From the NCBI GenBank assembly GCA_963718915.1, contig CAVRAI010000007.1, positions 60,001 to 92,000 on the forward strand: a stretch of 32,000 bases of DNA. The letters are read 5' to 3'. Shown here piece by piece: positions 6,159-26,659 of the stretch (its first letter is position 1; every line of letters begins with the position of its first letter). A program made the translations under genes and the position numbers. The notes beneath the pieces were generated by a model that worked only from the letters and a program-made list of their open reading frames with translations, did not search any database and was not told the DNA's origin. Source of the DNA: an uncultured Chloroflexia bacterium. Its GTDB lineage: Bacteria > Chloroflexota > Ktedonobacteria > Ktedonobacterales > JADMIN01.

Positions 6159-6170
6159 GGCAACGCTTGT

Positions 6171-6197: not shown

Positions 6198-6306
6198 AGA
6201 GCGCCTTGCTGGAGGATGGGTGGGCATAGCGAGTACGATATCGATGAAGGCCTTGTCACGCATCGTTCATGGACGCTGTACCAGGAACAGGAAAGCGAAG
6301 GAATTG

Positions 6307-6705
6307 ATGCCTAACGCTCAGCCGCATGGGCGCCCAGCGCTCAAGCTGACATCCAAGTGGGTACCGGCGTTCACGGCAGAAGACATGAAGGCCTACCTGC
6401 AAGGCGCCCCATCGTGCTCGTTGGGACCAACACTTTCTGGACAGCCTCCTACCGTTGAGTCGGTGGAATTCGTGACCTGTAAAGAACTGACCGACCGCTT
6501 GAACGTATATATTGGGCTGGCCGATGATGCGCTCGTCTGCTATGTCGTGCTGCGCGGTCCATTCAATTTGACGATGATGTCGCTTCCGCCAGGAGCTTAC
6601 CCGGGGCCTCACTTCAGCGAGACAGTCGAGGAAATCTACGACGCGAGTACAGGTGATCGGCTCGTGGGGGCCGCTGGCTCATTCAAGCCGAGACCAGGTT
6701 TCTAG
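6307..6705 (+). CDS. Hypothetical protein (132 aa)
   Basis: The ORF-track ORF 6169..6705 starts at a GTG inside the repeat. I prefer ATG 6307, preceded by GAAGGA at 6297-6302. No family recognised. It is visibly lower in GC than its neighbours. Confidence 0.45.
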   Translation: MPNAQPHGRPALKLTSKWVPAFTAEDMKAYLQGAPSCSLGPTLSGQPPTVESVEFVTCKELTDRLNVYIGLADDALVCYVVLRGPFNLTMMSLPPGAYPGPHFSETVEEIYDASTGDRLVGAAGSFKPRPGF

Positions 6706-6816: not shown

Positions 6817-6843
6817 GGCAAGCTACCATGCTAGTGCATCGCG
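6817..6843 (+). repeat. Direct repeat copy 2 (GGCAAGCTACCATGCTAGTGCATCGCG)
   Basis: Matches 6171..6197 with one mismatch. It is followed by a 10-nt insertion TGATATACTG that is absent from copy 1, then by the shared AGAGCG. Confidence 0.8.
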
Positions 6844-6852
6844 TGATATACT
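6844..6852 (+). promoter_or_regulatory. Candidate extended -10 promoter (TGaTATACT) for the metG leader transcript
   Basis: A TGnTATACT-type element lies 43 nt upstream of the leader ORF ATG. The -35 is poor, which extended -10 promoters tolerate. Confidence 0.35.
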
Positions 6853-6894: not shown

Positions 6895-6990
6895 ATGACG
6901 ACGACCGTTCAGCAGCACACCAACAGCATGATGATGGAGATGGCCATGCGCACGCCGCGCGGGGCATCGTCCATGCTGTCTGCTCACTGA
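6895..6990 (+). CDS. Met-rich leader peptide (31 aa: MTTTVQQHTNSMMMEMAMRTPRGASSMLSAH)
   Basis: Hand-translated, since it is below the ORF-track size cut-off. AGGGA at 6884-6888 lies upstream of ATG 6895. Seven of 31 codons are ATG, five of them within 6928-6948. A terminator hairpin starts 18 nt after the stop, and metG follows. Confidence 0.45.
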   Translation: MTTTVQQHTNSMMMEMAMRTPRGASSMLSAH

Positions 6991-7007
6991 ACATCAGCGC
7001 GAGACCG

Positions 7008-7040
7008 GGGCCGCTCCGCGAGGGGGCGGTCCTTTTTGTT
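7008..7040 (+). terminator. Intrinsic terminator / attenuator hairpin upstream of metG
   Basis: GGGCCGCTCC (7008-7017), GCGA tetraloop, then GGGG(G)CGGTCC (7022-7032). About 10 bp, GC-rich, with one bulge and two G-U pairs. It is followed by TTTTTGTT and a second T5 run at 7045-7049, and lies 50 nt before the metG ATG. Confidence 0.6.
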
Positions 7041-8723: not shown

Positions 8724-9007
8724 CAGAGGTGCTACGCCATACGTATGATGATGTATCGATGCGATAGAGATTGAGGCGCATACTGAGAGAGTGTGCGCCC
8801 ATGCTCATGGTGTTCGTGACGTTGGCGGGACAGCATTTCACTCGCATGCATCCTCATCCACGGCTTCGCGTCAGCGATAAGGACATCTCACCAACGTCCC
8901 GGCACACTGCTCCATCGCTTCATGCCGCCTCGTCGCGCCCGCCGGCTCGATATTCACTCCGCGACGCTCAACCCCTGGCCAGTTGCTCACAAGGAGGATC
9001 CTTCACC

Positions 9008-12000
9008 ATGTCACTCAGCGGCAAACTTGAAACCTGGCGTAATGATCTCATTGATATGAGCCGCCGGAATCCGATGCTCTATTACAAGAGTGAAGGCTAT
9101 CGCGCCGCGGGCATTCAATTCCTTCCTGAAAGTCCAAGCGCGCTGTTTGCGCAACTCCGCGGTCGTCCTGGCACTGTTGCCCTCAGTGAGATCCCTTGCG
9201 CGCTCTCACCAGAAGACCTGGAACGACGTCCACTGAGCCTCAGGCTGCTCCGACTCTACCTGCGGGTGCGTGAGGATGAGCGGGATCGCGGCATCAGAAC
9301 CCTCTATCTGGCGTTTGGGGTGCTTGAATGGTATGAATCCCCATCCAGTCAGGAGGCGATACATTCACCGCTCATCTTCCTGCCGGTAAAGCTGGAGTAC
9401 AAACGGGCGACAGATTCTTTCACATTGAAATTTGTCGAAGACATCGAATGCGAAATCAATCCGACGTTACGTGAATATCTGAATTATGGATTCAAGATTA
9501 CTCTGCCCACCTTCAGCGAAGTGATCTCTGATGACCCTGATGTCCCGGTGACGCTTGACGCCATCTTGCGGGGAATCGGGGAGGCGCTGCCACAGCAGGG
9601 CGGGTCGCTTCAGGATGAACGCTGGACTATTCATCCTGAGGTACATCTTGGCAGGTTCGCTTTCCAAAAACTGGTGATGTATCAGGATTTGCGGCGCCAT
9701 GCCTCCGAGGTTCTAGCGCATCCTCTCCTTCAGGTATTGGGCGGTGAGGCGGTTCTGCCAGCGCCCACTTCCTGGTTGCCATCACCACGCGAGTTTGATG
9801 ACAACATTCATCCACAACGTGTCCTGGAGATTCTTGACGCCGATTCCAGCCAGCAGGAGGCTATCCAATGGGCCAAGGCTGATGTCAGTTTTGTGCTGAA
9901 GGGTCCGCCAGGAACCGGGAAGAGTCAGACCATCGCCAACATCATCGCGGTGACATTGGGGCAGGGGAAGAAGGTGCTCTTCGTCAGCGAAAAGATGGCC
10001 GCGCTCGATGTCGTGCGCACGCGACTTCAGCAAGTGGGCCTCGGCGATTTCTGCCTTGACCTTCACAGTTCACAGACAGACTCCGCGCAGAAGTCAGCGT
10101 TCTTCAACGCGCTTAAAACCTCGCTCGACGATGTTTCGCGACCACCAGAAGAGCGCAGTGACGGTAGTTGGGCGCTCCAGTCGTCGAACCTGGAGCGACA
10201 GCGCAGGGAACTGAACAGTTACGTGAGGGAATTGCACCAACCGCGCCAGCCGCTGGGGAAATCAGCATTCTGGGCATACGCCGAACTTGCCAGACTCGCC
10301 GACGCCCCTGACTTTGACTTTGCGATCCCAAACGTTGATGCGATAACTCCGGATCAGTTCGACGCGAAGCTACGGACAATCAACGCGCTTGATGCCTGTC
10401 GCGATGTGCTGGACACCTACGAAACGCATCCCTGGCGCGAGACGCGGGCCACGAGCCATTCACTGGAATTAGAATCGAACATTCGCGACCATTACACGCG
10501 CCTCTCGGCCAACCTGCGCACGCTGCATGACGCGCTTGCCGCGATGGTCAAACTGCTCGGAGAACACGCCGCCATTAATTTCGCCTGGATGGACTTTATT
10601 GTACGGCATGCGGAGGTGGTGTTGGAGAGTCCACTCCCGCTGGGCGCGTGGCTCAGCCGTGAAGAACTGGCGCGGCTCCGACCACAGGTGGCGGATATGG
10701 TTGCGCGGTCGCGGGAATATTTAGCGTGGATCGCTCAATTCACACCGGTATACAACCGCGCGTTGCTCGCCGAAGATCTGACGACGTTGCAAGAGTCGCT
10801 CAGCGAGGAAAACGCCCAGAAGATAGCCAGCCTGCGTGACGAGATGGAATCGCCCCGCGATACCGCGATTGCGCAGCATGACGAACTCGATAAGCGCCTC
10901 ACGGCTGCGAGCCGCGCACTGGCGGCCATTCCGCCAGTGGCCAATACCCTGGCGGAACTGTGCGGCGCTGAGCAACCAGAGACGTTAGGCGAGACGAAAG
11001 GATTGATCGCGCTTGCACGCCATCTCTCGCAGTCTCCCAATCCGCCATCTGAGTGGCTGAATCCATCGAAATTTGCTGTCGTGCGCGCGCTAGCGGCTGA
11101 AGCGCGGGAGCGCTATTGGCAGTGCGCGCAATTACGCGGCGCGCTGGAAGGTGTCTATCAGCCTCAGTTCTTCACACTCGATCTGCATGGTATGGCGGAG
11201 CGCTTCCGCACACAGTATCGCTCGTTTTTCCGTTTCTTGCAGACATCGTATCGTCGCGACATCAAGATGGCGCGCTCGCTCCTGCTGCCAGGACAGACGC
11301 GCACAGCGGCGCAGGTTGAGGCAGATCTGTATCAGGCTGTCAAGCTGCTCGATATGGAGGCGGGGCTAAACGAGAAACGGGTTGACTATGCGCAGACACT
11401 GGATCACTATTTCGATGGCGCGCAGACTGACTGGGAGCAGGTGACTGCTGCCCTACGCTGGGTGACGCAGCTTCACGAGTACCTGGCGGGTATTCCTGTT
11501 TCGTCGGCGATGGCTGCCCTGATAACTGGGCCAGCGAAAGCGTTGCGGGCCATGAACGCCACGCTTGATACACTCGCGCAACTGGTTGCGGCATGGGCGG
11601 ATGAGGAATCCTATTGTGTCAGTCGCGTGTGGGTTTCACGGCTTCTTCCTGGCATCATTATGTTCGATGATGCGGCGCCTGAGCAGGCGTGCGTGGCGCT
11701 TGATGCGCTTCTCAGTGACCTGCGGATATTCTGGCAGGCCGTTGACACCGTTCAACGCCACCGTCATATGCCCCCAGAGCCACACCAGCCTATGTCCTGG
11801 GTGAGCCTCCGCGCTGACGTAGCGCTCGCGCGAGCGATTCAAGCGTTCGAGACGCGCCTGACGGAGAAGGCCGACGAGTATTCCAGCGATTTCGGACGCT
11901 ACTTTACAGGTGTGACGACCAATTGGCAGGCCATTGATGACGCGCTGGCGTGGACAGAGCGTTTCCTGACTCACTACGCTGATCGCGCCGTGCCAGAGCC

Positions 12001-14092
12001 AACCCTGGCGCTCGTCACCGATCCCGAGAATACTGTCGGGCGTGATGAACTTCGCCAGGCGCTTACCATGCTCCAGCAGACGTGGCCACACATGGACGCG
12101 GAACTGACGTTCAGTGATACCGTCCTGGCGCGAACAGCGCTCAATAAGCCTGGGAAGACCTTCGAAACCACTCCCCTTGTGACCCTGGCTGATCATGTTG
12201 ATTTCCATCTGCGCGAACTTCCCGCGTTGCATCGTTGGCTCACCTGCCAGCAACGCCTACACCACTGTGGACAGGTTGGCCTGGACGGTTTCATCGCAAG
12301 CCTGATGCGTCACGGCCCGATTCCCCAGAACCTCGCGGCGATCTTCCAGCGCCGATTCTACAAGCTCTGGCTCGATCATGTGCGTAGCCAGTCGCCAACT
12401 CTCGCCCGCTTCCGGGGCGAGGAGCACTCAGTCGCGATTGACCGTTTCCGCAATCTGGACGCTGGTCATCTGACACTCGCCAGAAGGCGTTTGAACGCTT
12501 TACTGCGGCAACGCCGTCGCCATGCCTTTCAAAGCTCAGCGGGTAAACGCGCCGTGGCGCTCTCGCAGGCGGATCGTGCGCTGCGCCGAGAAGCGCAGAA
12601 GAAACGCCATAGCCCTATACGGGTGACTGTGCGAAAGGCCGCGCGCGCATTGCTCGAACTGAAGCCATGCTGGATGATGAGTCCGCTCAGCGTAAGCCTG
12701 TTTCTCGATTCGGCGGAGCAACTCTTCGACCTGGTCATTTTTGACGAAGCGTCTCAGGTCTGCCCGGAAGACAGCATCTCAGCCATCTTGCGCGGGAAGC
12801 AGCTCATCGTGGTGGGTGATCCAAGGCAGCTTCCGCCGACGCGCTTCTTCTCGAAATCACTGGCCGATGAAAGTGGTGATGAGGATGAGGAAGACGAGGA
12901 GAACGAGCAAAAAGAGCGTACTCAGAGTATCCTGGATGAGTGTCGCGCGTCATCGTTCAACGAGCGCAGCCTCGAGTGGCATTATCGCAGCGCCGACGAA
13001 GCGTTGATCGCGTTCTCCAATCACCACTTTTACGATGATCAGTTGGTGACTTTCCCCAGCCCGCTTGGCGCCACTGGGCAGGGTGTGCGCTTCGAGTACG
13101 TTGAGAACAGCAATTACCGGCGCGGACGAAACACCAACGAGGCCGCGCGAGTGGCGGACATTGTCTTCGATCACCTGCAACAGCATGAAGACCCCTCACT
13201 TGGCATCGTAGCGCTGAGCGCCGCCCAGCAGGAAGCCATCACCGAGGCGCTCGAAAACCGTATCAAGCGCGACCCACGGCTGGAGCCGTATTTTGATGCG
13301 CTGTTTATTGGCAAACCCGATGGCATCTTCATTAAGAATCTGGAAAGCGTCCAGGGCGATGAACGCGACACCATCATTCTGAGCGTGGGGTATGGACCAG
13401 ATGTTGATGGCAACATCTATAAACGCTTTGGTCCAGTCAATAATGCGGGCGGCGAGCGTCGTCTCAATGTCGCGGTGACACGCGCGCGCAAACAGATGAT
13501 CGTCGTCAGCTCTATGCGGGCAAGCGACTTGCCACCTCATATGGCCTCGCTCGGCGCTCGCACCCTGCGTGACTATCTGCTCTATGCGGAGGCGTGCTCG
13601 AATGGCGGCGCGCAAGCCGGGAGGCAGGCGCTTTCCGAGCAGTCTACAGCGAGCGACGAACGAGCCATGCGCCTGACGGAGTCGCGATTTGAGTCACCTT
13701 TCGAGGAGGCTGTCTACAACGCATTAACCGCTCGTGGTCTGATGCTCGATACACAGGTGGGCTGTTCAAGATACCGGATCGATCTGGCAGTGCGCGACCC
13801 AGAGCATCCCGGCGCCTATCTGCTGGGTATCGAGTGTGATGGCGCATCGTACCACTCGTCGAAGACCGCGCGCGACCGCGATCGCCTCCGTCAGTGGCAA
13901 CTGGAACACATGGGCTGGAAGCTGCACCGTATCTGGTCGAGCGACTGGTTTGCCACGCCAACTGTTGAGGTGTTGCGTGTTCTGGATGCCGTGGCTGAGA
14001 TTATGAATAGGCGAGCGGGCGGGGAAATTCGCCGTGGCCTTCAGGCTACGGTGGGCGCTCCCAACGACGACGATATTCAGGATGAAGCGTGA
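9008..14092 (+). CDS. Giant DUF4011-like / Upf1-DNA2-type SF1 helicase / Vsr-DUF559-like endonuclease fusion protein (1694 aa)
   Basis: The ORF-track ORF is 8771..14092. I trim it to ATG 9008, 9 nt after AAGGAGGA (8991-8998).
- N-terminus: LETWRNDLIDMSRRNPMLYY...YLAFGVLEW...LGRFAFQKLVMYQDL.
- Walker A: GPPGTGKSQT (from nt 9901).
- Motif II: IFDEASQV (DEASQ at nt 12743-12757).
- Other helicase motifs: VVGDPRQLPPT, WHYRS, QGDERD, LNVAVTRAR.
- C-terminal PD-(D/E)XK-like module: YRIDLAV...LGIECDGASYHSS...RIWSSDWF. Confidence 0.85.
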   Translation: MSLSGKLETWRNDLIDMSRRNPMLYYKSEGYRAAGIQFLPESPSALFAQLRGRPGTVALSEIPCALSPEDLERRPLSLRLLRLYLRVREDERDRGIRTLYLAFGVLEWYESPSSQEAIHSPLIFLPVKLEYKRATDSFTLKFVEDIECEINPTLREYLNYGFKITLPTFSEVISDDPDVPVTLDAILRGIGEALPQQGGSLQDERWTIHPEVHLGRFAFQKLVMYQDLRRHASEVLAHPLLQVLGGEAVLPAPTSWLPSPREFDDNIHPQRVLEILDADSSQQEAIQWAKADVSFVLKGPPGTGKSQTIANIIAVTLGQGKKVLFVSEKMAALDVVRTRLQQVGLGDFCLDLHSSQTDSAQKSAFFNALKTSLDDVSRPPEERSDGSWALQSSNLERQRRELNSYVRELHQPRQPLGKSAFWAYAELARLADAPDFDFAIPNVDAITPDQFDAKLRTINALDACRDVLDTYETHPWRETRATSHSLELESNIRDHYTRLSANLRTLHDALAAMVKLLGEHAAINFAWMDFIVRHAEVVLESPLPLGAWLSREELARLRPQVADMVARSREYLAWIAQFTPVYNRALLAEDLTTLQESLSEENAQKIASLRDEMESPRDTAIAQHDELDKRLTAASRALAAIPPVANTLAELCGAEQPETLGETKGLIALARHLSQSPNPPSEWLNPSKFAVVRALAAEARERYWQCAQLRGALEGVYQPQFFTLDLHGMAERFRTQYRSFFRFLQTSYRRDIKMARSLLLPGQTRTAAQVEADLYQAVKLLDMEAGLNEKRVDYAQTLDHYFDGAQTDWEQVTAALRWVTQLHEYLAGIPVSSAMAALITGPAKALRAMNATLDTLAQLVAAWADEESYCVSRVWVSRLLPGIIMFDDAAPEQACVALDALLSDLRIFWQAVDTVQRHRHMPPEPHQPMSWVSLRADVALARAIQAFETRLTEKADEYSSDFGRYFTGVTTNWQAIDDALAWTERFLTHYADRAVPEPTLALVTDPENTVGRDELRQALTMLQQTWPHMDAELTFSDTVLARTALNKPGKTFETTPLVTLADHVDFHLRELPALHRWLTCQQRLHHCGQVGLDGFIASLMRHGPIPQNLAAIFQRRFYKLWLDHVRSQSPTLARFRGEEHSVAIDRFRNLDAGHLTLARRRLNALLRQRRRHAFQSSAGKRAVALSQADRALRREAQKKRHSPIRVTVRKAARALLELKPCWMMSPLSVSLFLDSAEQLFDLVIFDEASQVCPEDSISAILRGKQLIVVGDPRQLPPTRFFSKSLADESGDEDEEDEENEQKERTQSILDECRASSFNERSLEWHYRSADEALIAFSNHHFYDDQLVTFPSPLGATGQGVRFEYVENSNYRRGRNTNEAARVADIVFDHLQQHEDPSLGIVALSAAQQEAITEALENRIKRDPRLEPYFDALFIGKPDGIFIKNLESVQGDERDTIILSVGYGPDVDGNIYKRFGPVNNAGGERRLNVAVTRARKQMIVVSSMRASDLPPHMASLGARTLRDYLLYAEACSNGGAQAGRQALSEQSTASDERAMRLTESRFESPFEEAVYNALTARGLMLDTQVGCSRYRIDLAVRDPEHPGAYLLGIECDGASYHSSKTARDRDRLRQWQLEHMGWKLHRIWSSDWFATPTVEVLRVLDAVAEIMNRRAGGEIRRGLQATVGAPNDDDIQDEA
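14009..14073 (+). repeat. Dispersed hairpin repeat, copy B (right half only), embedded in the 3' end of the helicase ORF
   Basis: aggcgagc..ggggaaattcgCCGTGGCCttcaGGCTACGGtgggcgctcccaacgacgacga matches copies C and D. The hairpin is at 14032-14051. Confidence 0.7.
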
Positions 14093-14231
14093 GTTTCACC
14101 GGGCGAAAATCCGCCTGCTTTGGCAGTATGGTACGGTGTTTGCTATAACTGCATTGTAGGCAGGCGGCGCCATTCGTCTACTCGTGGCATGTGACGACCG
14201 GCACAATAGTCATAGGCGGGCCGCGCATTTA

Positions 14232-14260
14232 TTGACGGCAAAGCGCCTGTGCGGTATTCT
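14232..14260 (+). promoter_or_regulatory. Candidate sigma-70-type promoter for the kinase gene (TTGACG-17 nt-TATTCT)
   Basis: -35 TTGACG at 14232-14237, an exact 17-nt spacer, and -10 TATTCT at 14255-14260. It lies about 115 nt upstream of GTG 14377. Confidence 0.35.
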
Positions 14261-14376
14261 GATGGCGCAGCACGGCATTGGAAAATAGCGGAGTAGTACG
14301 CTCTGCACGGGCAATGCACGGGTGACGCATGAGCGATGAGCGATGCTCCGGTGTTGCGTGGATGAAGGAGTAGGAC

Positions 14377-16206
14377 GTGCCGCAGGCTCCCGCAAAAAGC
14401 GCACTTGCTCCCGGAACGATCATTCGAAATAACTATCGCATCGAGGAACTGATTGGGAGCGGCGGCTACGCGAATGTCTATCGCGCCACTGAACTCACCT
14501 TCGGCTATGAGCGTGCGATCAAAGAAGTGATTGACCCGGATCCCGGTGTTCGCATGCAGTTCCAGCTTGAAGCTCGCCTGCTTATTGACACCAAGCATCC
14601 TAATATTCCCCGTGGCTACTATATCCTCGATGATAAAGGACGCATGTATCTCATCATGGAGTACGTGCATGGCAAAGACCTCGAAGAAATTCTCAATGAT
14701 AGCCTGAAAACGCACCGGCAGCCACTCGACGAGAAACAGGTGCTCCAGTGGGCGATTGCCGTCTGCGACGCGCTGACCGAGATGCATTCACTCAAAACGC
14801 CCATCATTCACAGGGATATCAAGCCAGCGAATATCAAGATCACTCCGGATGGACGGCCGGTGCTGATTGACTTCGGACTGGCGAAGCTGCACAAGGAGAA
14901 CAAGAATACCCAGGCCGCCGCCCAGGGCGTCTCGCCGGGTTTCGCTCCACCAGAACAATACATGGCCAAAGGCAGGACCGACGCGCGTACCGATGTCTAT
15001 GGCCTGGGCGCAACGCTCTACGCCTGCCTGACCGGCCGCGACGCCCCCGAGGCGCCCGCCCGCCTGCTCGCCCAGACGGGGGCCACTAGCCAGGGCGCCG
15101 ATCTCAAACCCATCCGGTTCTACAACCCACAGGTCAGCGAAGCGACCGAGCGCGTCGTCAAGAAAGCGCTGGAGCTTTCGCCGCAGCAGCGCCAGCAAAC
15201 CGCCGCTGATTTGCAGCGCGAGTTGCAGACTGCCCTCAAGGGTGGCAAGGCTGGGCCAGCCACGCTGGATATGGGACCGGTCTGCGCGAAATGTGGCATG
15301 CAAAATCGCCCTGGGCTGCTGAATTGCGCCAACTGTGGCGCACCTCTCAACGCGGCAGGTGACTCCCTCTCGCGTGGCGCGGGGAAACGCCCGAAGATCG
15401 CCTCACCAGCGGCCTCGAACGCGCGTGGCACTGCGCAGATGCCCGCGATGGCGTCGCCGCCCGTGGCGCATCCGCTGGCCGACGATCAGCGCACCAAAGG
15501 GACTCTTATCGCGGCGCAGCAGCGCAGTTCCAACAAACACCCCGCCGTCTCGCCGACCGCCGCGCGCGGCACTGGCAAACAGCCAGCGGTGTCAAATATG
15601 CCGACGCCATCGATCCTCAACTATCCTGGCAGTGGCACGGCGACAGATATCGCGGGGAACAACGCCCTCGCGCCACGTGTTGCCCCCACTCCCGCCAATC
15701 CCCCGAAGGTGGTCAACCGGGCGACTGGCGCGCCGAGCGCGGTGGGATCGTCGTCGGCGGTGAAGTCCTCCTGGATCAGAGTTGGCACGACGGCTCTGGG
15801 TGGGCCAGGCAAAGTGGTGCTGGCATTTGGCTTCGTCGAGACTCTCTGGGGAGCGCTTATCATCGCGCTGGGCGTGGTGATGGCGGTGACCAGGGGGAAT
15901 AACTTCCCCATCGTCACGTTCGTTGGCGCATGGCTCATCATCGTGGTGCTGGCCAGCCTGATTGGCGGTCACGCGATCAGTCGGCCGGTCTTCCGTCGCA
16001 AGCGGGTGAGCGGATTCAGGCGCGGCCTACAGGCTTTCGGCCTGCTCCTCTACTCAGTCGTGGTGCATGCCGTCGCGATCTGGGGCGTTACGACCTATTC
16101 CAATCTGCAGAGTGGCGCCACCGTCGCTATCATCGCGTTCATCGCCTTCGGTCTGAACGTGTTGGTCATCGGTATCTTCACGATGCTCAATATGCTCAAC
16201 AACTGA
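14377..16206 (+). CDS. Hanks-type Ser/Thr protein kinase with zinc ribbon, low-complexity linker and C-terminal 4-TM module
   Basis: GTG start 6 nt after AAGGAG (14365-14370). Kinase motifs are GSGGYANVY, AIKEV, HRDIKPANI (HRD at 14809-14817), DFGLAK and SPGFAPPE. The zinc ribbon is CAKCG..x..CANCG (15283-15336). A Pro/Ala/Ser-rich linker follows, then about four hydrophobic helices (about 15770-16200). Confidence 0.88.
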   Translation: MPQAPAKSALAPGTIIRNNYRIEELIGSGGYANVYRATELTFGYERAIKEVIDPDPGVRMQFQLEARLLIDTKHPNIPRGYYILDDKGRMYLIMEYVHGKDLEEILNDSLKTHRQPLDEKQVLQWAIAVCDALTEMHSLKTPIIHRDIKPANIKITPDGRPVLIDFGLAKLHKENKNTQAAAQGVSPGFAPPEQYMAKGRTDARTDVYGLGATLYACLTGRDAPEAPARLLAQTGATSQGADLKPIRFYNPQVSEATERVVKKALELSPQQRQQTAADLQRELQTALKGGKAGPATLDMGPVCAKCGMQNRPGLLNCANCGAPLNAAGDSLSRGAGKRPKIASPAASNARGTAQMPAMASPPVAHPLADDQRTKGTLIAAQQRSSNKHPAVSPTAARGTGKQPAVSNMPTPSILNYPGSGTATDIAGNNALAPRVAPTPANPPKVVNRATGAPSAVGSSSAVKSSWIRVGTTALGGPGKVVLAFGFVETLWGALIIALGVVMAVTRGNNFPIVTFVGAWLIIVVLASLIGGHAISRPVFRRKRVSGFRRGLQAFGLLLYSVVVHAVAIWGVTTYSNLQSGATVAIIAFIAFGLNVLVIGIFTMLNMLNN

Positions 16207-16249
16207 ACGCGCTCAGCAACATATTCACCTATTGAGGGGGGCACCTCCC

Positions 16250-17440
16250 ATGCCCCGGTCGAATCCGGCGCTCGCGGCACAGCAACCCAATCCGATGTTT
16301 CGCATCGGCGCGCTGGTCTATGGCCGTGACGACATCCTCCATCTGGAGTTTGGCGAGCCAGACCTCCCCACGCCAGCGCATATCTCCGCCGCCGCCGTTG
16401 CCTCCATCACTCGCGAACGCCAGGGATACGGCCCCGGCAACGGCATTGCCGAACTGCGCGCCGCCGTCGCCGCGCGTGTCCAGCGCGTCAATGGATTCGC
16501 GCCAGCCGCCGAGCAAGTGGTGATGACGGCGGGTGGCACGGGCGGTCTGATGGGCAGCCTGCTCACCCTCTGCGCGCCCGGCGACATCGTGCTGACTCCC
16601 GACCCCGGCTGGCCCGGCTACGACGCAATGTTGGCGGTCGCTGGTGTTGATCGCGCGTACTATCCGCTGCTCCCAGAGCGTGGTTGGCTGCCTGATCTTG
16701 CCGCGCTCGAAGCCGCCATTACGCCGCGAACGCGCGTGCTGCTCGTGAACTCGCCCTCGAATCCCGGCGGCGCGGTCTATCCTGCGGAGACCATCGCCGC
16801 GCTGGTGGAGATTGCCGTCCGGCACGATCTCTGGCTGCTCTCCGATGAGTGCTACGACGAGCTGGTCTTCGATGCGCCTCATGTCAGCCCTGCTTCTCTC
16901 GATCCCGATGGGCGTGTGCTGACAGTGGGCAGCTTCTCGAAGACCTATGCGATGACGGGTTGGCGCATCGGCTGGGTGGTCGCGCCGTCAGCGATTGCAC
17001 CGGCCCTGGGACTGACCACCGCCGCGCAGCTCAACAATCTGCCGCTCTTCGTCCAGCGGGCCGCGCTTGCCGCGCTCGAAGGCCCGCAGGAGTGTGTCGC
17101 CGAGATGCGCGCGTCGTACCAGGCGCGGCGCGACCTCGCGGCGGGACTGCTACGCGAGCGCGGTCTGCTCGAATATACCCCGGCGGGCGCGTTCTACCTG
17201 CTGATTCCGGTGGCGCGCGCGGCGGGCTATGACGCGGATGAGCCGTTCGATACGCTGGCGTTCGCCGAGGCGCTGATCGCCGAACGAGGTATCGCGTTGG
17301 CGCCGGGGATGGCGTTCGGCAGCCGCACCACTCGCTATGTGCGCGTCTCGCTGGCCAGCGCCCCCGACGTGCTACGCGCGGGCGTCTCCGGCCTGCTCGA
17401 CTTCGCCGTCGGATGGCGGCAGCGCATAGGTGATGCCTAA
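16250..17440 (+). CDS. Pyridoxal-phosphate-dependent aminotransferase, class I (AspC-like)
   Basis: The ORF-track start is TTG 16232. I prefer ATG 16250, after GAGGGGGG. It has the PLP-lysine motif SFSKTYAMTGWRIGW, NSPSNPGG and a C-terminal R..VR (YVRVS). Confidence 0.88.
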   Translation: MPRSNPALAAQQPNPMFRIGALVYGRDDILHLEFGEPDLPTPAHISAAAVASITRERQGYGPGNGIAELRAAVAARVQRVNGFAPAAEQVVMTAGGTGGLMGSLLTLCAPGDIVLTPDPGWPGYDAMLAVAGVDRAYYPLLPERGWLPDLAALEAAITPRTRVLLVNSPSNPGGAVYPAETIAALVEIAVRHDLWLLSDECYDELVFDAPHVSPASLDPDGRVLTVGSFSKTYAMTGWRIGWVVAPSAIAPALGLTTAAQLNNLPLFVQRAALAALEGPQECVAEMRASYQARRDLAAGLLRERGLLEYTPAGAFYLLIPVARAAGYDADEPFDTLAFAEALIAERGIALAPGMAFGSRTTRYVRVSLASAPDVLRAGVSGLLDFAVGWRQRIGDA

Positions 17441-17452
17441 TTCGTTAGAGAT

Positions 17453-17559
17453 GTTGTCGTAAGGAGGCGCGCCGTAGCATAAATGCTACGGCGAATGGGC
17501 TGCATACGCGGGAAATTCGTCGTGGCCTTCAGGCTACGGCTGCCTGTCCCAACGACAAC
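17453..17559 (+). repeat. Dispersed structured repeat, copy C (complete, MITE/REP-like)
   Basis: Begins 13 nt after the aminotransferase stop.
- Terminal inverted repeats: GTTGTCGT (17453-60) and ACGACAAC (17552-59).
- Hairpin 1: GCCGTAGCA-taaa-TGCTACGGC (17471-92).
- Complementary bridge: GCGAAT...ATTCG.
- Hairpin 2: CGTGGCC-ttca-GGCTACG (17520-39), which needs a G-U pair on the + strand. Confidence 0.75.
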
Positions 17560-17685
17560 GACGCCCCGGATTCTGTATACTTTGCCGCGCTGCGCACTTT
17601 CTCGTAGACCAATAGAGTTATGTTAATATCACGGGGTTGATGGTACCATGACAACATACGCGCATGCGAGCGATGAGGCGCCCTT

Positions 17686-20367
17686 ATGGATACCTATCTC
17701 CTGGCGACCAAACTGCGCATTCCTCCCTCCCCACATCATCGGGTGCGGCGCGCCCGGCTCGTTGACGCGCTCGATCAGGGTATCCCACGCTACAAGCTCA
17801 CAGTGATCTCCGCCCCGGCTGGCTATGGCAAAACAACCCTGTTGGCCGACTGGGCGCATGCCAGTCCTCTGCCAATGGTCTGGCTCTCGGTGAGCGAAGA
17901 AGACAACGACCCTGAGCGCTTCTTCCGCTATCTGGCGACGGGGTGGGAACAGGTACGGCCAGACATCAGCGAAAGCCCGCTCGGCCTGCTGCTCGGCGCG
18001 GTGATGTCGGAGCGTGAGGCGATCCTGGCCGCGTTCATCAACGCCGCCGCCACCGTGCCCGATCACCTGGTCTTTCTCCTCGACGACTATCACCTGATCG
18101 AGGATCCTTCCATCCATCAGGCGCTGACCTTCCTGCTCGACCACCTGCCGCCAACCGTCCACGTGCTGCTGGCGGGCCGCACCGAACCGCCGCTGCCGCT
18201 GGCCCGCTATCGTGCTCGCCACGAACTGCTGGAGTTGCGGGCGGATGATTTGCAGTTCTCACTAGAGGAGACAGACGATTTCTTGAACCAGCTAATGCGG
18301 CTCGATTTCACGCGGGATGAGCTTGCGTCGCTGCATATGCGGCTGGAAGGCTGGATCGCCGGTCTGCAACTGGTGGCGCTCAGTCGCCAGCGCCGCCACG
18401 CCACGACAGATACGCTGATCATCAGCGGCAGGCAGCGCTTCATCGCCGACTATCTGAGTGAGAATGTGCTTGCCCAGCTACCAACTAGTACGCAGCGATT
18501 CCTGCTCCAGTCTGGCATACTGGATCGCATGTGCGGCTCGCTATGTGACGCCGTCACCGAGGGGCAAGACAGCCAGGCGATGCTGGAAACGCTGGAGCGT
18601 GAGAACCTGTTTCTCGTCGCCCTGGATGACCAGCGCGAGTGGTTCCGCTATCACGTCCTCTTCGCCGACTTTCTCCGCGAGGCGTTGAAACGGCGTTATC
18701 CTGAGGATGTAGTTCCGCTGCATCGCCGCGCCGCGCGATGGTATCTGGCGCATGATCTGCCTGAGCCAGCTTTCCAGCATGCGGTCGCTGGCGAAGACGA
18801 AGACCTTGTGATTCAGATTTTCGAGCGCTACTTCTTCCTGAAGCTGTTGAGCGGCGAGATTGCCGTCGTACAGCGGTGGCTCGCGGCGCTTCCGGCGGCG
18901 TGGGAGGCAAGCCACGTGCAGTTGAGCCTCTTCCGGGCGAATGTGCTGTTCTTCACCGGGCAAATAGAACCGTTTGTGCGCGATCTCGATGCGCTGGAAC
19001 GCCGGGTGCGCGCGGCGGCGGGTGAGGATGCGCGTTTACATCTGGCGCGCGTGACCGCGATGCGCTGCTTCGTCGCCTGTTATAACAACGACGTCGTGCC
19101 AGCGGAGACGTTGGCCTACCAGGCGCTCCAGGATTTGCCCGAAGAGGAAATTGACCTGCGGCAGGGGCTGAATGGCTCGCTCGGCGATCTCTACCGCCAG
19201 AATGGACGCTGGCAGGAAGCGCGCGCATGCTATCTGAAAGCGCTTGACCGGACACTCAATGACCCCCAGAAAGAGGCGTTTCGGATTCAGTCTGTCGAGG
19301 CGTTGGGCGCGCTGGCCGACCTCGATCTGCGGCAGGGGCGCCTTCGGGACGCCGCGACCTGGTGGCGGCGCGCTCTAGACGTGATCGGCGAGCGGGACGG
19401 CCGGAGCGGCTTCCCGCTGCCCCTCATCGGTTGGGTGTATATCCGCCTGGGCGAGATTCTCTATGAGTGGAACCAGTTGAGCGAGGCCGAGAACGACCTC
19501 TCGCGCGGGCTGCAACGCGCTGCGTTGGGCGGCGATGTGCGCGGGATGATCGCTGGCTATCTGCTGGCCGCCCGTCTGAAATTGGCGTCGGGCGACATCA
19601 CCGCCGCTGGTGAGCATTTGGAGCACGCGCGTCCCCTGGTGGAGCATGCCGCGTTCCCCGATTGGGCTGGCCGCTTTGGGCGCCTGGAGGTGGAGTATCT
19701 GCTGGCGCGTCAGAGGATTCTGGCCGCCGTTGAGCGGGCCGAGGCGATGATGCGGAGCGATGACCTCGAAGGGGGCGCTGAAAGCGAGGTTGCGCGGCTG
19801 GCGCTGGCTCGCGCGCTGATCGTGCAGAGCGATAACGAGTCCCTTACACGAGCGCTGGCGCTGCTCAAGCGCCTATTGCCGCTGGCGAGCGACGAGGGGC
19901 GGGCAGGCGTCGCCGCCGAGGCGCTGGCGCTTCAGTCCCTCGCCCACTGGCGGCGCGGCGAAGAGGCGCAGGCGTTGACGATTCTGGAGCGCGCCCTGCG
20001 TCTGGCCGAACCCGAAGGTTATGCGCGTCTCTTCGCCGATTTGGGTCTGCCAATGGCCCGCCTGCTGCAGAAGGCCCATTCCCGCGAGGTGATGCGTGAC
20101 TATGTCGAGCGCCTACTGACGATATGTGCGAGCGACCTCGCCAGCTCCATCGCTCAGCGCGGCACACTGCCAGAGCCGCTCAGCCTGCGCGAACAGGAGG
20201 TGCTGCGCCTGATGGCCGCCGGGCTGACCAATCGAGAAATCGCCGAAACGCTCGTCATCTCGCCGGAAACCGTCAAAAAGCATACTGGCAGCATCTATGG
20301 AAAACTGAGCGTGGGCAACCGCACCGAAGCTGCGGCCAGGGCCAGAGCGCTGAACCTGCTCGACTGA
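17686..20367 (+). CDS. MalT-like STAND ATPase / LuxR-family transcriptional regulator
   Basis: 893 aa. The N-terminus is LATKLRIPP..., Walker A is SAPAGYGKTT and Walker B is LVFLLDDYH. A long TPR-like helical region follows. The C-terminal LuxR HTH is LSLREQEVLRLMAAGLTNREIAETLVISPETVKKHTGSIYGKL. Confidence 0.88.
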   Translation: MDTYLLATKLRIPPSPHHRVRRARLVDALDQGIPRYKLTVISAPAGYGKTTLLADWAHASPLPMVWLSVSEEDNDPERFFRYLATGWEQVRPDISESPLGLLLGAVMSEREAILAAFINAAATVPDHLVFLLDDYHLIEDPSIHQALTFLLDHLPPTVHVLLAGRTEPPLPLARYRARHELLELRADDLQFSLEETDDFLNQLMRLDFTRDELASLHMRLEGWIAGLQLVALSRQRRHATTDTLIISGRQRFIADYLSENVLAQLPTSTQRFLLQSGILDRMCGSLCDAVTEGQDSQAMLETLERENLFLVALDDQREWFRYHVLFADFLREALKRRYPEDVVPLHRRAARWYLAHDLPEPAFQHAVAGEDEDLVIQIFERYFFLKLLSGEIAVVQRWLAALPAAWEASHVQLSLFRANVLFFTGQIEPFVRDLDALERRVRAAAGEDARLHLARVTAMRCFVACYNNDVVPAETLAYQALQDLPEEEIDLRQGLNGSLGDLYRQNGRWQEARACYLKALDRTLNDPQKEAFRIQSVEALGALADLDLRQGRLRDAATWWRRALDVIGERDGRSGFPLPLIGWVYIRLGEILYEWNQLSEAENDLSRGLQRAALGGDVRGMIAGYLLAARLKLASGDITAAGEHLEHARPLVEHAAFPDWAGRFGRLEVEYLLARQRILAAVERAEAMMRSDDLEGGAESEVARLALARALIVQSDNESLTRALALLKRLLPLASDEGRAGVAAEALALQSLAHWRRGEEAQALTILERALRLAEPEGYARLFADLGLPMARLLQKAHSREVMRDYVERLLTICASDLASSIAQRGTLPEPLSLREQEVLRLMAAGLTNREIAETLVISPETVKKHTGSIYGKLSVGNRTEAAARARALNLLD

Positions 20368-20521
20368 GCGCTTCCGCCCACATCTCGTCTCACACCCCAA
20401 AAAGATACCCCTGGTGAATACCCCGTTCCGGGCATTACGCCGCCCTCACTTCCGCATATCATTGCGCATAGCGACAGACGCCGCACGGGGCATCACGGGG
20501 CATTCACAGGGGAGACTGACA

Positions 20522-20896
20522 ATGGACATCAATCTGCCGATCATCGCCGGAGCGATCTCGACGATCTTCTTCGCATCTGGCGAGCTGCCTATGTTGTTGA
20601 AAGCATTCCAGACCAAGAACCTGCGCTCATACAGCCTGAGCAACATCCTGTTCGCCAACATGGGCAACGTCATCTACTCAATCTATGTCTTCCATCTGCC
20701 CCCCGGCCCCATCTGGCTGCTGCATTCGTTCTATATGACCTCCACCGTGCTGATGCTCTTCTGGTATCTGCGCTACGAGCGGCGACCAGGACAGCTCATC
20801 GCAGCGTTACGGGCGCGTCTCCGGCGGCGTGTCGCGGGAGTATTCGCGCGTCTCTCCGAGGCTCTCAGGTGGATAGACAGCCCGGCGGAGGCATGA
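20522..20896 (+). CDS. Small 3-TM membrane protein, PQ-loop / SemiSWEET-like
   Basis: The ORF-track ORF is 20414..20896. I prefer ATG 20522, after GGGGAG. It has three predicted TM helices. The motif GELPMLLKAFQTKNLRSYSLS resembles the PQ-loop signature, with PM in place of PQ. The family call is tentative. Confidence 0.5.
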   Translation: MDINLPIIAGAISTIFFASGELPMLLKAFQTKNLRSYSLSNILFANMGNVIYSIYVFHLPPGPIWLLHSFYMTSTVLMLFWYLRYERRPGQLIAALRARLRRRVAGVFARLSEALRWIDSPAEA

Positions 20897-20930
20897 CGAC
20901 ATCGCTGTATCGCCTAGAGGCGCAGCGCAT

Positions 20931-22061
20931 ATGAAAGGGGCTAGCTCTATGAGCAATCAAACTTTCCACCATGACACTATCGTAATTGGCGGTGGCCAGG
21001 CGGGACTCTCCACTGGCTACTTCCTGAAGCGGCAAGGGCGTGACTTTGTGATTCTCGACGCGAACGAGCGAACTGGCGACTCCTGGCGGAACCGTTGGGA
21101 CTCGCTTCGCCTCTTCACCTACGCCCGCTATGATGGGCTGGCCGGGATGCCATTCCCCGCCCCGGCCCACTCTTTCCCTACGAAAGATGAGATGGTCAAC
21201 TACCTGGAGTCCTACGCGGCGCGGTTTGCCCTGCCGGTGCGGACAGGCGTCCGGGTAGACCGCCTGACGCGACGTGGGGATCGGTTTGTGGCGATGGCGG
21301 GCGACCTGGAGTTCGAGGCTGACCATGTGGTCGTGGCGATGTCAAACTATCAGCGACCGCGCGTGCCCGCGTTCGCCGGGGAACTGGATCCGGGCATCGT
21401 TCAGTTCCATGCCAGCGCGTATCGTAACCCTTCCCAACTCCGCGACGGTGGCGTGCTTATCGTCGGCGCGGGCAACTCGGGGGCCGAGATCGCTATGGAG
21501 GTGGTGCGCAGTCATCACGTCTGGCTTTCAGGGAGGGATACTGGCCACCTCCCGGTTCGTATCGAGGGAGCTTTGACGCCATTTTTCGTCAAACCCCTGT
21601 TTCGCATCGTCTTCCATCGCGTGCTGACGGTCAATACGTCAATTGGGCGCAAGGCGCGTACGAAGCTCCTTGCTGGTGGTGATCCGCTCATTCGAACGAA
21701 ACCCAAAGACCTTGCCGCCGCTGGCATCGAGCGCGTTCCCCGCACCGCCGGTGCGCGCGATGGGCATCCCGCGCTGGATGATGGGCGCGTGCTGGAGGTG
21801 GCGAACGTGATCTGGTGTACGGGGTATCATCCTGGCTTCTCGTGGATTGATCTGCCCATCTTCGACGGCGATGAGCCATCGCATGAGCGTGGGATTGTTA
21901 CCAGAGAGCCGGGGCTATACTTCGTCGGCCTGGAATTTCTCTACGCGGCGTCATCGGCAATGGTGCAGGGGGTAAGCAGGGACGCAGAATATGTCGTCCG
22001 AGCCATCGCGATGGAGGCGAACGGTACACGGACGCATACGCGCGCGCGTGTCGCCGTCTGA
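20931..22061 (+). CDS. FAD/NAD(P)-binding flavin-containing monooxygenase-type oxidoreductase
   Basis: 376 aa with two dinucleotide-binding motifs, VIGGGQAG and IVGAGNSGAEIA. WRNRWDSLRLFT and ATGY-like (WCTGYHP) motifs are typical of FMO/CzcO-like enzymes. Confidence 0.8.
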   Translation: MKGASSMSNQTFHHDTIVIGGGQAGLSTGYFLKRQGRDFVILDANERTGDSWRNRWDSLRLFTYARYDGLAGMPFPAPAHSFPTKDEMVNYLESYAARFALPVRTGVRVDRLTRRGDRFVAMAGDLEFEADHVVVAMSNYQRPRVPAFAGELDPGIVQFHASAYRNPSQLRDGGVLIVGAGNSGAEIAMEVVRSHHVWLSGRDTGHLPVRIEGALTPFFVKPLFRIVFHRVLTVNTSIGRKARTKLLAGGDPLIRTKPKDLAAAGIERVPRTAGARDGHPALDDGRVLEVANVIWCTGYHPGFSWIDLPIFDGDEPSHERGIVTREPGLYFVGLEFLYAASSAMVQGVSRDAEYVVRAIAMEANGTRTHTRARVAV

Positions 22062-22080
22062 TAACACATTCGTTTGGTGG

Positions 22081-22202
22081 GTTGTCGTTTGTGGTGAGGC
22101 GAGCAAGCCATAGCGTGAGCGCTACGGCGAATGGGGAGATGCCGCAGGAGCGGAAATTCGCCGGGGCCTTCAGGTTCCGGCACGCTCCCCACATACAACG
22201 AC
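22081..22202 (+). repeat. Dispersed structured repeat, copy D (complete)
   Basis: Begins 20 nt after the oxidoreductase stop.
- Left end: GTTGTCGTTTGTGG.
- Right end: CCACATACAACGAC, the inverted repeat with a 3-nt indel.
- Hairpin 1: GCCATAGCG-tgag-CGCTACGGC.
- Bridge: GCGAATGGGG...GGAAATTCGCC.
- Hairpin 2: CCGGGGCC-ttca-GGTTCCGG. Confidence 0.75.
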
Positions 22203-22219
22203 CATAGCCGGACTTGGTA

Positions 22220-22996
22220 TCAATCGGGCAATACCTCGCCCACCATCTGCCCAACGGCCTCTTTGCAGGTCGCCAGATATTCGTCGCGGGTGGGCGCGAT
22301 GATGCCCTGCGCGCGCTCGATCAGCGATTCCAGCGCGGCGACATCGGGATTGCTGCCCGCGTGCTTGAGCCGCGTCTGATGGGCGTATGTTTCGGCCTGG
22401 GGTCGTGGCGTCGCGGGAACGAACGTGACCACCGACGGGAAGCGCAGCATCGCGCCGGATAGGGCATCGGCGGGCTGGCCGAAGATGCCTGCCAACACGC
22501 TCGCGATGCGAGTGCAGAGCGCCTCGTCAGCACAGGCGTCTGCTAGCGATGCGCCAAGGCTGGGCATGGCGAGATAGAGCGGCTGCTCGAACGCTATCTC
22601 GATCAGATTGTGCGCCTTCCACCATCCCTGATCCAGCGCGACGCCACAGGCGCGGGCAGCATCCTTGGCCAGCGGAACCGCCTGCTGGAAGGCGTAGCCA
22701 CGCTCGGCTGTGGGACGACCGCCGTACTCCTCGTCGCTGTACCAGTCGAAGCCATGCGGCTCGGCGCCGTGCGAGAGCGCGCCGACGACGAACGCGCGAA
22801 ACTCGTCTCGCGCCGAGCCAGTGGGTATCGTGTTGACGGCCTCCACCAGCCGCGCGCCGCTCCGGTGCGATTCCGTATGTGAGAGCGGGCTGCCGAAGAG
22901 CATGTCCGGCCAGACACATCCCAGGAAGTGGGCAGCCGTCGGCGCTGGAACCAGGCGCTGTATTAACCAGGCATGCGCGAGCGGGAACATGGACAC
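22220..22996 (-). CDS. Hypothetical protein, possibly a His-rich metal-dependent hydrolase
   Basis: 258-aa ORF with protein-like composition. Conserved-looking His/Asp clusters are present (PLAHAW, WPDMLF, SHGAEPHGFDWYSD, KAHNLIE). No confident family assignment. Confidence 0.5.
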   Translation of the reverse strand: MSMFPLAHAWLIQRLVPAPTAAHFLGCVWPDMLFGSPLSHTESHRSGARLVEAVNTIPTGSARDEFRAFVVGALSHGAEPHGFDWYSDEEYGGRPTAERGYAFQQAVPLAKDAARACGVALDQGWWKAHNLIEIAFEQPLYLAMPSLGASLADACADEALCTRIASVLAGIFGQPADALSGAMLRFPSVVTFVPATPRPQAETYAHQTRLKHAGSNPDVAALESLIERAQGIIAPTRDEYLATCKEAVGQMVGEVLPD

Positions 22997-23005
22997 CCCC
23001 TTTGC

Positions 23006-24094: not shown

Positions 24095-24354
24095 CGTGTC
24101 CTGCCAGTTCCAGGGTATTCACGTCCCTGTGGTGTAAGTCTAGTCCGAACAGGGGCGTCGCTCAAAGGGAATTGGCCCATATTTCTGCGATTTCTCGCAT
24201 CGCATATACGCAATTGGCCGCAAAAGGTGGCAACCGGCAGGGGCGACGACGCCTATCTGTGAAGTAGCGAACGGTATGCATTCGCGCCAGGATCGCACCA
24301 GGATAGAGTAGGGTCGGATCAATATGGGAACGGACGGAGAAGAGGGGGATGAGG

Positions 24355-24427
<73 letters not shown>

Positions 24428-25428: not shown

Positions 25429-25594
25429 GGCCTAATCGTAGCATGTCTGGGTATAGTCTGGATATCGTTGAGCTATCGCGTTATCCTTAGTTCTGAAAAT
25501 GCATACCTGCTTGAAGCGTCTGCTTTCCCGTTGGGATGTACTCATGTTCAGCCATCCATGCGCATGGAATCACTCTCGCCAAAGGAGCGTGTCT

Positions 25595-26659
25595 GTGTCT
25601 CTAGCCGTTCGTTCCAGACTGCTACGGACCTTTTGTTTCGGCGTAGTGTTGTTCGCCCTGGCTCTTGCTGCCTGCGACGAGCCGACCGTTCAGCGCGGCC
25701 CCACGGGCACCATCAACCTGCGCGGCGCAACAACGCAGGTGCAGTCCGCCGCACTTGTCGAGTATCCCGTACCAGATCGTGATGGCTTTCCATATGACAT
25801 CGTCATCGGGCCAGATGGCAATTTCTGGATCACCGGCCATTTCTCGCCAGATGACACGTTCGACATTCCAACGGTCAGCCGCCTGACCCTCAAAGCGGTG
25901 CTGACGCCGCATGCTATGCCCCAGCCAGGGCAGATCCCCGACGCCATTGTGAATGGCCCCGACGGCAATCTCTGGTTCACGGTCCCCCGGTTCAATATCA
26001 TCGGACGTATCACGCCCGCGGGTGTGATGACTCAGTTCCCACTGCCGTCGAATGGCGGGCCGCTGGATATCGTGTTGGGCAAGGATAACAATCTCTGGTT
26101 CACCGAGCCGGGGAGCAATGCGATTGGGCGCATCACCCCTGAAGGCAAAGTCACCGAGTTTCCGCTGCCAGTTGCCGCGAGTTTCCCCAACCAGATGACC
26201 GTTGGCCCCGATGGCGCGATCTGGTTTACCGAGAACTATCGCAACTTCGTCGGGCGTATCACCTCTGATGGCAAGATCACTGAGCTTGCCGTGCCGATCA
26301 TCGGTCGCGGCCTCTATGGGATTACAGTTGGACCAGACAAGAACCTCTGGATCACCGACATCGGCGATAACTGTATCTGGCAGATGTCGACGAAGGGCGT
26401 GACGAAGAAGTTCGCGTTGCCGTCGTCGCCGCCGCGCACTCCGTATAACATCATCCCTGGGCCAGATGGCAATCTCTGGTTCACCGAAAATTCGTACAAT
26501 GCGATTGCCCGGATGACGCTCAGCGGCGAGCTTACCGAGTATACGCTGCCGCATCCATCGAGCGGCCCGCTCAGTCTTGTCGTGGGCAGCGACGGCAATA
26601 TCTGGTTCACCGAGCTTGGCCAGCATGCCATCGGACGCATCACGCCGCCCGCATCCTGA
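25595..26659 (+). CDS. Exported lipoprotein with 7-bladed Vgb (virginiamycin B lyase)-like beta-propeller repeats
   Basis: The ORF-track ORF is 25499..26659. I prefer GTG 25595, 7 nt after AAGGAG (25582-87). That start gives the signal peptide MSLAVRSRLLRTFCFGVVLFALALAAC with lipobox LAAC (Cys codon 25673-75). There are seven repeats of about 41 aa of the type GPDGNLWFTE..NAIGRITP.G..TEFPLP. Confidence 0.75.
   Translation: MSLAVRSRLLRTFCFGVVLFALALAACDEPTVQRGPTGTINLRGATTQVQSAALVEYPVPDRDGFPYDIVIGPDGNFWITGHFSPDDTFDIPTVSRLTLKAVLTPHAMPQPGQIPDAIVNGPDGNLWFTVPRFNIIGRITPAGVMTQFPLPSNGGPLDIVLGKDNNLWFTEPGSNAIGRITPEGKVTEFPLPVAASFPNQMTVGPDGAIWFTENYRNFVGRITSDGKITELAVPIIGRGLYGITVGPDKNLWITDIGDNCIWQMSTKGVTKKFALPSSPPRTPYNIIPGPDGNLWFTENSYNAIARMTLSGELTEYTLPHPSSGPLSLVVGSDGNIWFTELGQHAIGRITPPAS

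Follow-up and report, generated by a model that had tools for sequence, protein, structure and literature searches.

A family of small, probably mobile palindromic repeats in Ktedonobacterales

The window, a stretch of 32,000 nucleotides from the genome of a soil member of the Ktedonobacterales (Chloroflexota), carries four copies of a repeat whose carriers are some members of this order. The repeats probably form a family of small, non-autonomous and mobile palindromic DNA of the REP-doublet (REPIN/BIME) or MITE kind; the sequence family is new, but the kind of element is well known. Between close relatives, intergenic spacers differ by the gain, loss or replacement of copies, at three sites at least, and the units, bridges and arms are reshuffled from copy to copy. 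Together, these observations argue for mobile DNA that is REP/BIME-like or MITE-like.

The four copies of the original prediction lie where it placed them, and the sequences at 2485–2578, 14009–14075, 17453–17562 and 22081–22203 are as first transcribed. The 12-mer GGAAATTCGNCG occurs four times in the window, always on the + strand (starts at 2527, 14023, 17511 and 22152), against 0.74 occurrences expected by chance, and none of 100 shuffles gets to four. A repeat search of the window returns the four right halves as a 52-nt family and hairpin 1 as a 29-nt family at 17471 and 22107. A covariance model (R1), built from four full copies (C and D of the window and the metagenome elements L110 and L111), matches the window at exactly these four places and no others. 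The repeat is real and far above chance similarity, which the shuffles and the R1 scan rule out as its source. The copies, their parts and two associated features are the following:

17453 to 17562, + strand: copy C, complete element (R1 109.3 bits), in the order GTTGTCGT arm, unit 1, GCGAATGGG, 11-nt spacer, GGAAATTCG, inverted unit 2, CCCAACGACAACGAC arm
17470 to 17493, + strand: hairpin 1 of copy C, CGCCGTAGCA taaa TGCTACGGCG (hairpin scan, pair counts)
17519 to 17540, + strand: hairpin 2 of copy C, GTCGTGGCC ttca GGCTACGGC (hairpin scan, pair counts)
22081 to 22203, + strand: copy D, complete element (R1 110.4 bits)
22107 to 22128 and 22160 to 22181, + strand: hairpins 1 and 2 of copy D (hairpin scan)
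14009 to 14075, + strand: copy B, right half only (R1 52.1 bits), with spacer, GGAAATTCGCC, hairpin 2 at 14028–14055 and CCCAACGACGACGA
2467 to 2578, no strand assigned: copy A, rearranged (R1 53.7 bits on +, 52.7 bits on −)
2292 to 2445, no strand assigned: second, unrelated palindromic family adjoining copy A, with arms CGCGGGCGGTTAAAACCGCGCC..GGCCTGCGGCCAC and their inverse
17441 to 17591, + strand: inserted block of ~150 nt with copy C (by-eye alignment against L106 and L107, and spacer lengths)

The claim that all copies are in + orientation stands for GGAAATTCGNCG (4/4), but copy A can be read in either orientation, R1 scoring it almost equally on both strands. Copy A has a left arm of the L111 type (CCGAACAGCGTGCTGGGATGGGTG), lacks unit 1, and retains GCGAATGGG at 2505–2513 and GGAAATTCG at 2527–2535; these are followed by a hairpin-1-type unit at 2535–2556 and by a right arm corresponding to copy D's left arm in inverted form. 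Its hairpin unit is likewise inverted relative to copy D (89% over 44 nt). Since the second palindromic family lies beside copy A, the region 2237–2623 is a mosaic of repeats. The consensus of this second family is GTGGCCRCAGGCCsTTCAGGCGCGGTTT, with an adjacent GAGTCCGC-gcag-GCGGACTTC hairpin; in the window it is present as two inverted copies around ~86 nt of small hairpins, and it has matches in other Ktedonobacterales contigs (L113 5296–5335 and L114 5856–5917).

The original prediction described two distinct hairpins joined by a bridge. Instead, hairpins 1 and 2 are diverged reverse-complement versions of one unit, and the whole element is thus one long imperfect palindrome. The unit is 22–24 nt long and G+C-rich, of the form GCCGTAGCS-tgaa-SGCTACGGC followed by GAAT (GCCGTAGC..GCTACGGC-GAAT), and a full element of 110–215 nt consists of two units placed tail-to-tail, a variable spacer of 10–30 nt and variable outer inverted arms. 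In copy C, hairpin 2 is related to the reverse complement of hairpin 1 and contains a single conserved G-T wobble, and unit 1 (17471–17496) is 88% complementary to the hairpin at 2531–2556. Unit 1 and the left arm of copy D, whose hairpin 1 contains one A-C mismatch, are 89% complementary to 2531–2574. Hairpins of 22–24 nt with stems of 8–10 bp are found at 2535–2556, 14028–14055, 17470–17493, 17519–17540 and 22160–22181, as well as in L110, L111 and L114. The complementarity of GCGAAT and ATTCGC is as first described, and so are the terminal inverted repeats GTTGTCGT/ACGACAAC of copies C and D.

Folding predictions give a single long hairpin for copy C (−63 kcal/mol, z = −5.7) and an outer stem bearing local hairpins for copy D and L111; the full L110 and L111 elements fold at −116 and −107 kcal/mol, respectively (z = −5.7 and −8.2). 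Over the four full copies, a local-hairpin model has 98.8% of cells paired and two compensatory pairs, whereas a cross-paired long-hairpin model has 91.3% of cells paired, no compensatory pair and two positions broken in three of the four. The local hairpins are therefore the conserved structures, and they are kept by compensatory change. Both changes had been proposed from the window copies: the closing pair of hairpin 1 is A-U in copy C and G-C in the other full copies, and position 4 of hairpin 2 is U-A in copy C (and, by eye, in copy B) and G-C in copy D, L110 and L111. With only four full sequences the statistical support is weak, this amount of covariation being equalled by 36 of 500 shuffles. 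The least conserved part of the family is its ends, different copies having unrelated outer arms, whereas the hairpins and their GAAT/ATTC tails are conserved; the stems vary, but the adjoining motifs GGCGAATGGG and GGAAATTCGCC show little or no change.

Scanning 241 million metagenome records for the hairpin-2 pattern returned only three contigs. They represent two different full elements, each ~200 nt long: L110, to which L112 is identical, and L111. Both are on soil-metagenome contigs and share their core with the window copies, with other outer arms (TGATGAAC..CCGAACAGTGT). The source organism of L111 also belongs to the Ktedonobacterales, and the ends of this element form a perfect 13-bp terminal inverted repeat (CCCCGAACAGTGT/ACACTGTTCGGGG). 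The contigs break off at the element or close to it, which a multicopy repeat would be expected to cause. R1 also finds diverged copies in relatives. In the copy at L114 7714–7857 the hairpin is kept and the bridge is TAATCCTGA/TCAGGATTA; in that at L113 3221–3317 GAATG..GGAAATTCGC is kept together with a new perfect 8-bp stem, CTGGAGCA/TGCTCCAG. Hairpin, bridge and arm modules are exchanged unusually freely within this family. Other searches gave no further copies: a chimera of six-frame translations of the element had no match at E ≤ 1 among 5.8 billion proteins, a viral-contig scan and a blastn search of a plasmid collection found none, and a contig scan for GCGAATGGG-N5-30-GGAAATTCG (18 specified bases, wide gap) gave chance matches in unrelated phyla, none with the hairpins.

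Comparison with orthologous sites shows how labile the copies are. The aminotransferase beside copy C is 93% identical to Ktedonobacterales proteins. The R1 scan of four contigs from syntenic relatives (L106–L109, ~59 kb, 85–93% protein identity) finds no copy; in all, across ~100 kb of syntenic DNA from relatives with 85–95% protein identity, the element is absent at the same sites. Copy C is missing from its site in L106, L107 and L109, the spacer between the aminotransferase and the MalT-like regulator gene being 245 nt in the window and 40–112 nt in the relatives. The inserted ~150-nt block is located between the aminotransferase stop and a GCCGCnCTGCGC..GTAGACCAAT block conserved in L106 and L107. 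In the gene table of a further contig (P0004) only 10 nt follow the aminotransferase, which leaves no room for the element. At the site of copy D, relatives have a methyltransferase gene of which no trace is left in the window. The L111 copy is absent from L113–L116, between a luciferase-like gene and a kinase that is 90–95% identical. Finally, the copy at L113 3221–3317 is absent from L114 and that at L114 7714–7857 is absent from L113; at both sites the flanking genes are ~95% identical by eye and the spacers wholly different.

Replacement of spacers by recombination instead of transposition would give the same pattern of presence and absence. No direct repeat, as a target-site duplication would leave, is visible at the junctions of the copy-C block against L106 and L107, whose spacers are much diverged, and the remaining empty sites are too diverged or too truncated by contig ends to show clean junctions. 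The spacers L113 7648–7940 versus L114 7706–7921, and L113 3181–3331 versus L114 4803–5037, have no shared sequence, and each is occupied by its own G+C-rich hairpin repeats, whose loops are often TTCA/TGAA or GCAG. Intergenic DNA seems to turn over generally in this group. A weak sigma-70-like match at 17552–17581 on the + strand (ACGACA, 18 nt, TATACT) spans the right end of copy C and its flank and faces the MalT-like regulator gene; it could be an outward-reading hybrid promoter or a chance match.

The genes beside the copies are those named in the original prediction, encoding a dienelactone hydrolase (DLH), a DUF4011/AAA_11/AAA_12 helicase, a class I/II aminotransferase and a Pyr_redox oxidoreductase. 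The accompanying claim that every copy begins 0–20 nt after the stop codon of a + strand gene fails for copy B, which is inside an open reading frame, and for copy A, whose core is ~250 nt from the DLH stop. Copies C and D and the L113 3221–3317 copy do start 5–19 nt after the stop of a co-oriented gene (5 nt in L113). Copy D is nevertheless flanked by convergent genes (oxidoreductase stop at 22061; a 258-aa gene on the − strand with its stop at 22220), as is copy A and probably copy B, so that these copies are equally downstream of a − strand gene. Moreover, 76% of the coding sequence of the window is on the + strand and a + gene precedes 15 of the 22 spacers, which makes it uninformative that four of four copies follow + genes. 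Outside the window, the L111 copy is antiparallel to the kinase gene downstream and also, inferred by synteny with L113, L115 and L116, to the luciferase-like gene upstream, and the L114 copy has its better R1 score in the antiparallel direction.

Copy B is contained within the helicase open reading frame (8771–14092) and is read as its last ~28 codons, with the stop at 14090–14092; the TGA and TAG near 14004–14010 are out of frame. Among the 150 helicase relatives listed, homology mostly ends at residues ~295–310 of the 330-aa query, although a few reach 327. This end corresponds to nucleotides ~13985–14030, the left edge of copy B, and the Pfam MTES_1575 match ends at residue 1740. A half copy may thus have been absorbed into the 3′ end of the gene, supplying the last 28 codons and the stop. 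Were the L111 kinase an orthologue of the window kinase, copy B and the L111 copy would be one insertion; at 27% identity, it is not. The helicase itself (+ strand, 1773 aa) is a DUF4011/AAA_11/AAA_12/MTES_1575 helicase-nuclease with PADLOC matches to two candidate defence families, PDC-S37 (1263 bits) and Hhe (572 bits). Between the genes for methionyl-tRNA synthetase (MetRS) and the kinase it is absent from L106 and L108 and truncated in L109, and its two closest homologues among the matches listed extend ~165 residues further at the C terminus, in place of the tail that the repeat encodes in the window.

Several other features of the window were noted. A 31-codon Met-rich ORF (MTTTVQQHTNSMMMEMAMRTPRGASSMLSAH) followed by a terminator (GGGGCCGCTCC gcgag GGGGCGGTCC TTTTTGTTGG) occupies 6896–7039 on the + strand, directly upstream of metG (methionyl-tRNA synthetase, 7089–8723). 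Conservation of the Met-rich run and of this canonical terminator extends to L106, L108 and L109, and from its sequence the region looks like a leader-peptide attenuator for MetRS. A 30-nt direct repeat at 6171–6200 and 6817–6846 (93% identity, GGCAAGCTACCATGCTAGYGCATCGCGWGA) brackets an unannotated ORF at 6169–6705. A Vgb_lyase-family beta-propeller gene at 25499–26659 (+ strand) has internal repeats of ~126 nt that make up three repeat families of the window, and a tRNA-Phe(GAA) at 24353–24427 (− strand) is the only Rfam or ARAGORN match in the window.

Regarding mechanism, we infer that copies would be made in trans by an enzyme that recognises the hairpin with its tail in single-stranded form. 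The likeliest candidate, tentatively, is an HUH/Y1 transposase of the IS200/IS605-RAYT type, because the hairpins and GAAT tails are conserved rather than the termini and no target duplication is visible, and because the window copies share one strand and IS605-family genes are abundant in the class, COG0675 being the commonest COG of K. racemifer (PMC3236041). Neither the window nor ~100 kb of related loci encodes a transposase of any kind. Copies would survive mainly just downstream of stop codons, presumably because insertions there are the least harmful. Where transcribed, they would fold into highly stable stem-loops at the 3′ end, which could shield the mRNA, and would not act as intrinsic terminators. 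There is a small likelihood that the family is a REPIN-like population kept by its own domesticated HUH/Y1 transposase, or that the G-U pairs of the + strand reflect an RNA function in 3′ UTRs; no such repeat system was found described for the Ktedonobacterales.

The original prediction had taken the element to act in + strand transcripts. The excess of G-U pairs on which this was based is present, the arm mismatches being G-U 22 times on the + strand of the element and 7 times on the − strand, but it is mostly shared by descent rather than independent (~3 independent G-U events versus 1 in the local hairpins), and the orientation of copies to genes is inconsistent. A hairpin recognised as single-stranded DNA would be expected to show this asymmetry too. 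That the element is a selected cis-acting 3′ UTR RNA (mRNA stabiliser, processing site or source of small RNA) is unlikely, and a selected RNA role, though possible, is unsupported. In its favour, the + strand folds better in five of six copies (−63 versus −54, −62 versus −56.5 and −31.6 versus −20.4 kcal/mol; −116 versus −97 for L110 and −107 versus −93 for L111), the G-U pair at position 5 of hairpin 2 is kept in all copies, two stem pairs covary, and three copies start shortly past a co-oriented stop, as described above. However, shuffles reach the covariation of the four full sequences as often as noted, L111 and probably L114 run against the direction of the genes expected to transcribe them, convergent genes flank copies A, D and probably B, and relatives with 85–95% identical proteins have the same genes and no element.

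The RNA reading also lacks a U-tract and an Rfam match. An intrinsic terminator is rejected since no T-run follows any hairpin (terminator scan of 13000–23000); a canonical terminator is present elsewhere in the window, for instance at 7007–7039. A known Rfam RNA, families described from Chloroflexi included, is rejected as well, no family other than tRNA-Phe matching the window at the gathering threshold and permissive scans of C, D, L110 and L111 giving chance-level matches only (E ≥ 0.33). An integron attC site is excluded by the reversed order of the ends (GTTGTCG ... CGACAAC versus RYYYAAC ... GTTRRRY); in addition, the genes on either side are housekeeping genes with conserved synteny in relatives, and the window holds no integrase. 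A literature search with the motif string returned unrelated primers only. The view that the element is a dispersed structured repeat of REP/BIME/ERIC or MITE kind was borne out, and no match to it was found in Rfam, the plasmid collection or the literature searched.

The rival to the HUH/Y1 route is a DDE-type MITE origin. A classical MITE would be a deletion derivative of an insertion sequence with a DDE transposase, moved by cut-and-paste through its terminal inverted repeats. Such repeats exist in copies C and D and, perfect over 13 bp, in L111, the size of 110–215 nt fits, and sites are polymorphic for insertion. However, the ends are the least conserved part and the internal hairpins are conserved, the reverse of what a transposase recognising terminal inverted repeats would maintain; copy C, with its diverged spacers, shows no target-site duplication, and no parent insertion sequence was found in the window or related loci. 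We consider this origin quite improbable. A structural DNA site, bound or cleaved by gyrase, a nucleoid protein or a polymerase and retained to organise the chromosome, as has been proposed for E. coli BIMEs, is very improbable: GGCGAATGGG and GGAAATTCGCC are nearly invariant beside varying stems and all four window copies have one orientation, yet the same loci in close relatives have no copies, the family is rare in public data, nothing connects it to any binding protein, and exactly these motifs are replaced by another inverted pair in L114.

If confirmed genome-wide, a REP/REPIN- or MITE-like family would be added to the Ktedonobacteria, which are known for very large, transposase-rich genomes. 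It would help to explain the complete turnover of spacers between relatives with ~95% identical flanking genes and would provide a marker for strain typing and assembly breaks; copy B may be one case of such an element rewriting the C terminus of a candidate defence helicase. The finding opens no new mechanism and settles no open question, and its interest is modest.

Among known systems, copy B, in frame in a coding gene, resembles Rickettsia palindromic elements (RPE) and intragenic REPs. Unlike RPE, it replaces a C-terminal tail and supplies the stop instead of being inserted internally in frame, and it is a single case. E. coli BIMEs are mosaics of REP units with other motifs, to which the mosaic of two palindromic families at 2237–2623 and the recombination of modules between copies are comparable; the sequence is unrelated and nothing points to binding motifs for IHF, gyrase or Pol I. 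ERIC/IRU, the Correia elements of Neisseria and RUP are palindromic MITEs of 100–200 nt in transcribed intergenic regions, and the long RNA hairpins of such elements can alter mRNA stability depending on orientation. The present family shares with them an imperfect palindrome of 100–200 nt and a long hairpin fold, but differs in its unrelated sequence, its phylum, the conservation of internal units instead of termini, and the absence of a TA or other target duplication, as judged from diverged spacers.

A second point of comparison is provided by the REP superfamilies tagged GTAG or CGTC. According to Di Nocera et al. 2013 (PMC3733652), REP families are placed 3′ of ORFs whose neighbours are unidirectional or convergent, occur as dimers 20–100 bp apart, contain G-T pairs and are sometimes intragenic; one of them, GTAG-23, is from a member of the Chloroflexi, Thermomicrobium roseum. 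As far as that account goes, our family is similar in its stems of 8–9 bp with 4-nt loops, its dimers 20–100 bp apart, its location, mostly 3′ of ORFs where the neighbouring genes are unidirectional or convergent, its G-T stem pairs, its intragenic copies, its clustering with other repeats and a precedent in the same phylum. On the same account, it differs in the absence of the defining unpaired terminal tetranucleotide. The conserved flank of our family is GAAT(G/T)GG / CC(C/A)ATTC, with CGTC only in copy C.

The REPINs, or REP doublets, and their RAYT transposases are among the closest descriptions (Bertels & Rainey 2011, PMC3116915; PMC3337134). The present family differs from them in having no RAYT/Y1 gene in the window or related loci, GTAG inside the stem, where it is paired with CTAC, no unpaired 5′ tag, a Chloroflexota host, and long outer arms that differ between copies. 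REP units measure 20–40 nt, number tens to hundreds of extragenic copies in a genome and flank a single-copy RAYT gene; the units here are 22–24 nt long, and the 32 kb of the window hold four copies. Because the unpaired GTAG/CGTC tag is missing and no RAYT gene was seen in these loci, it is filed as REP-doublet-like only. As in REPINs, two short, G+C-rich imperfect palindromes are inverted about a spacer (C, D, L110 and L111), the element is extragenic and non-autonomous, singlets (copy B) occur as well as doublets, and the whole can fold as one long hairpin, the compensatory changes here favouring local ones. By this comparison, the family appears to work like a REP doublet rather than to be a proven member.
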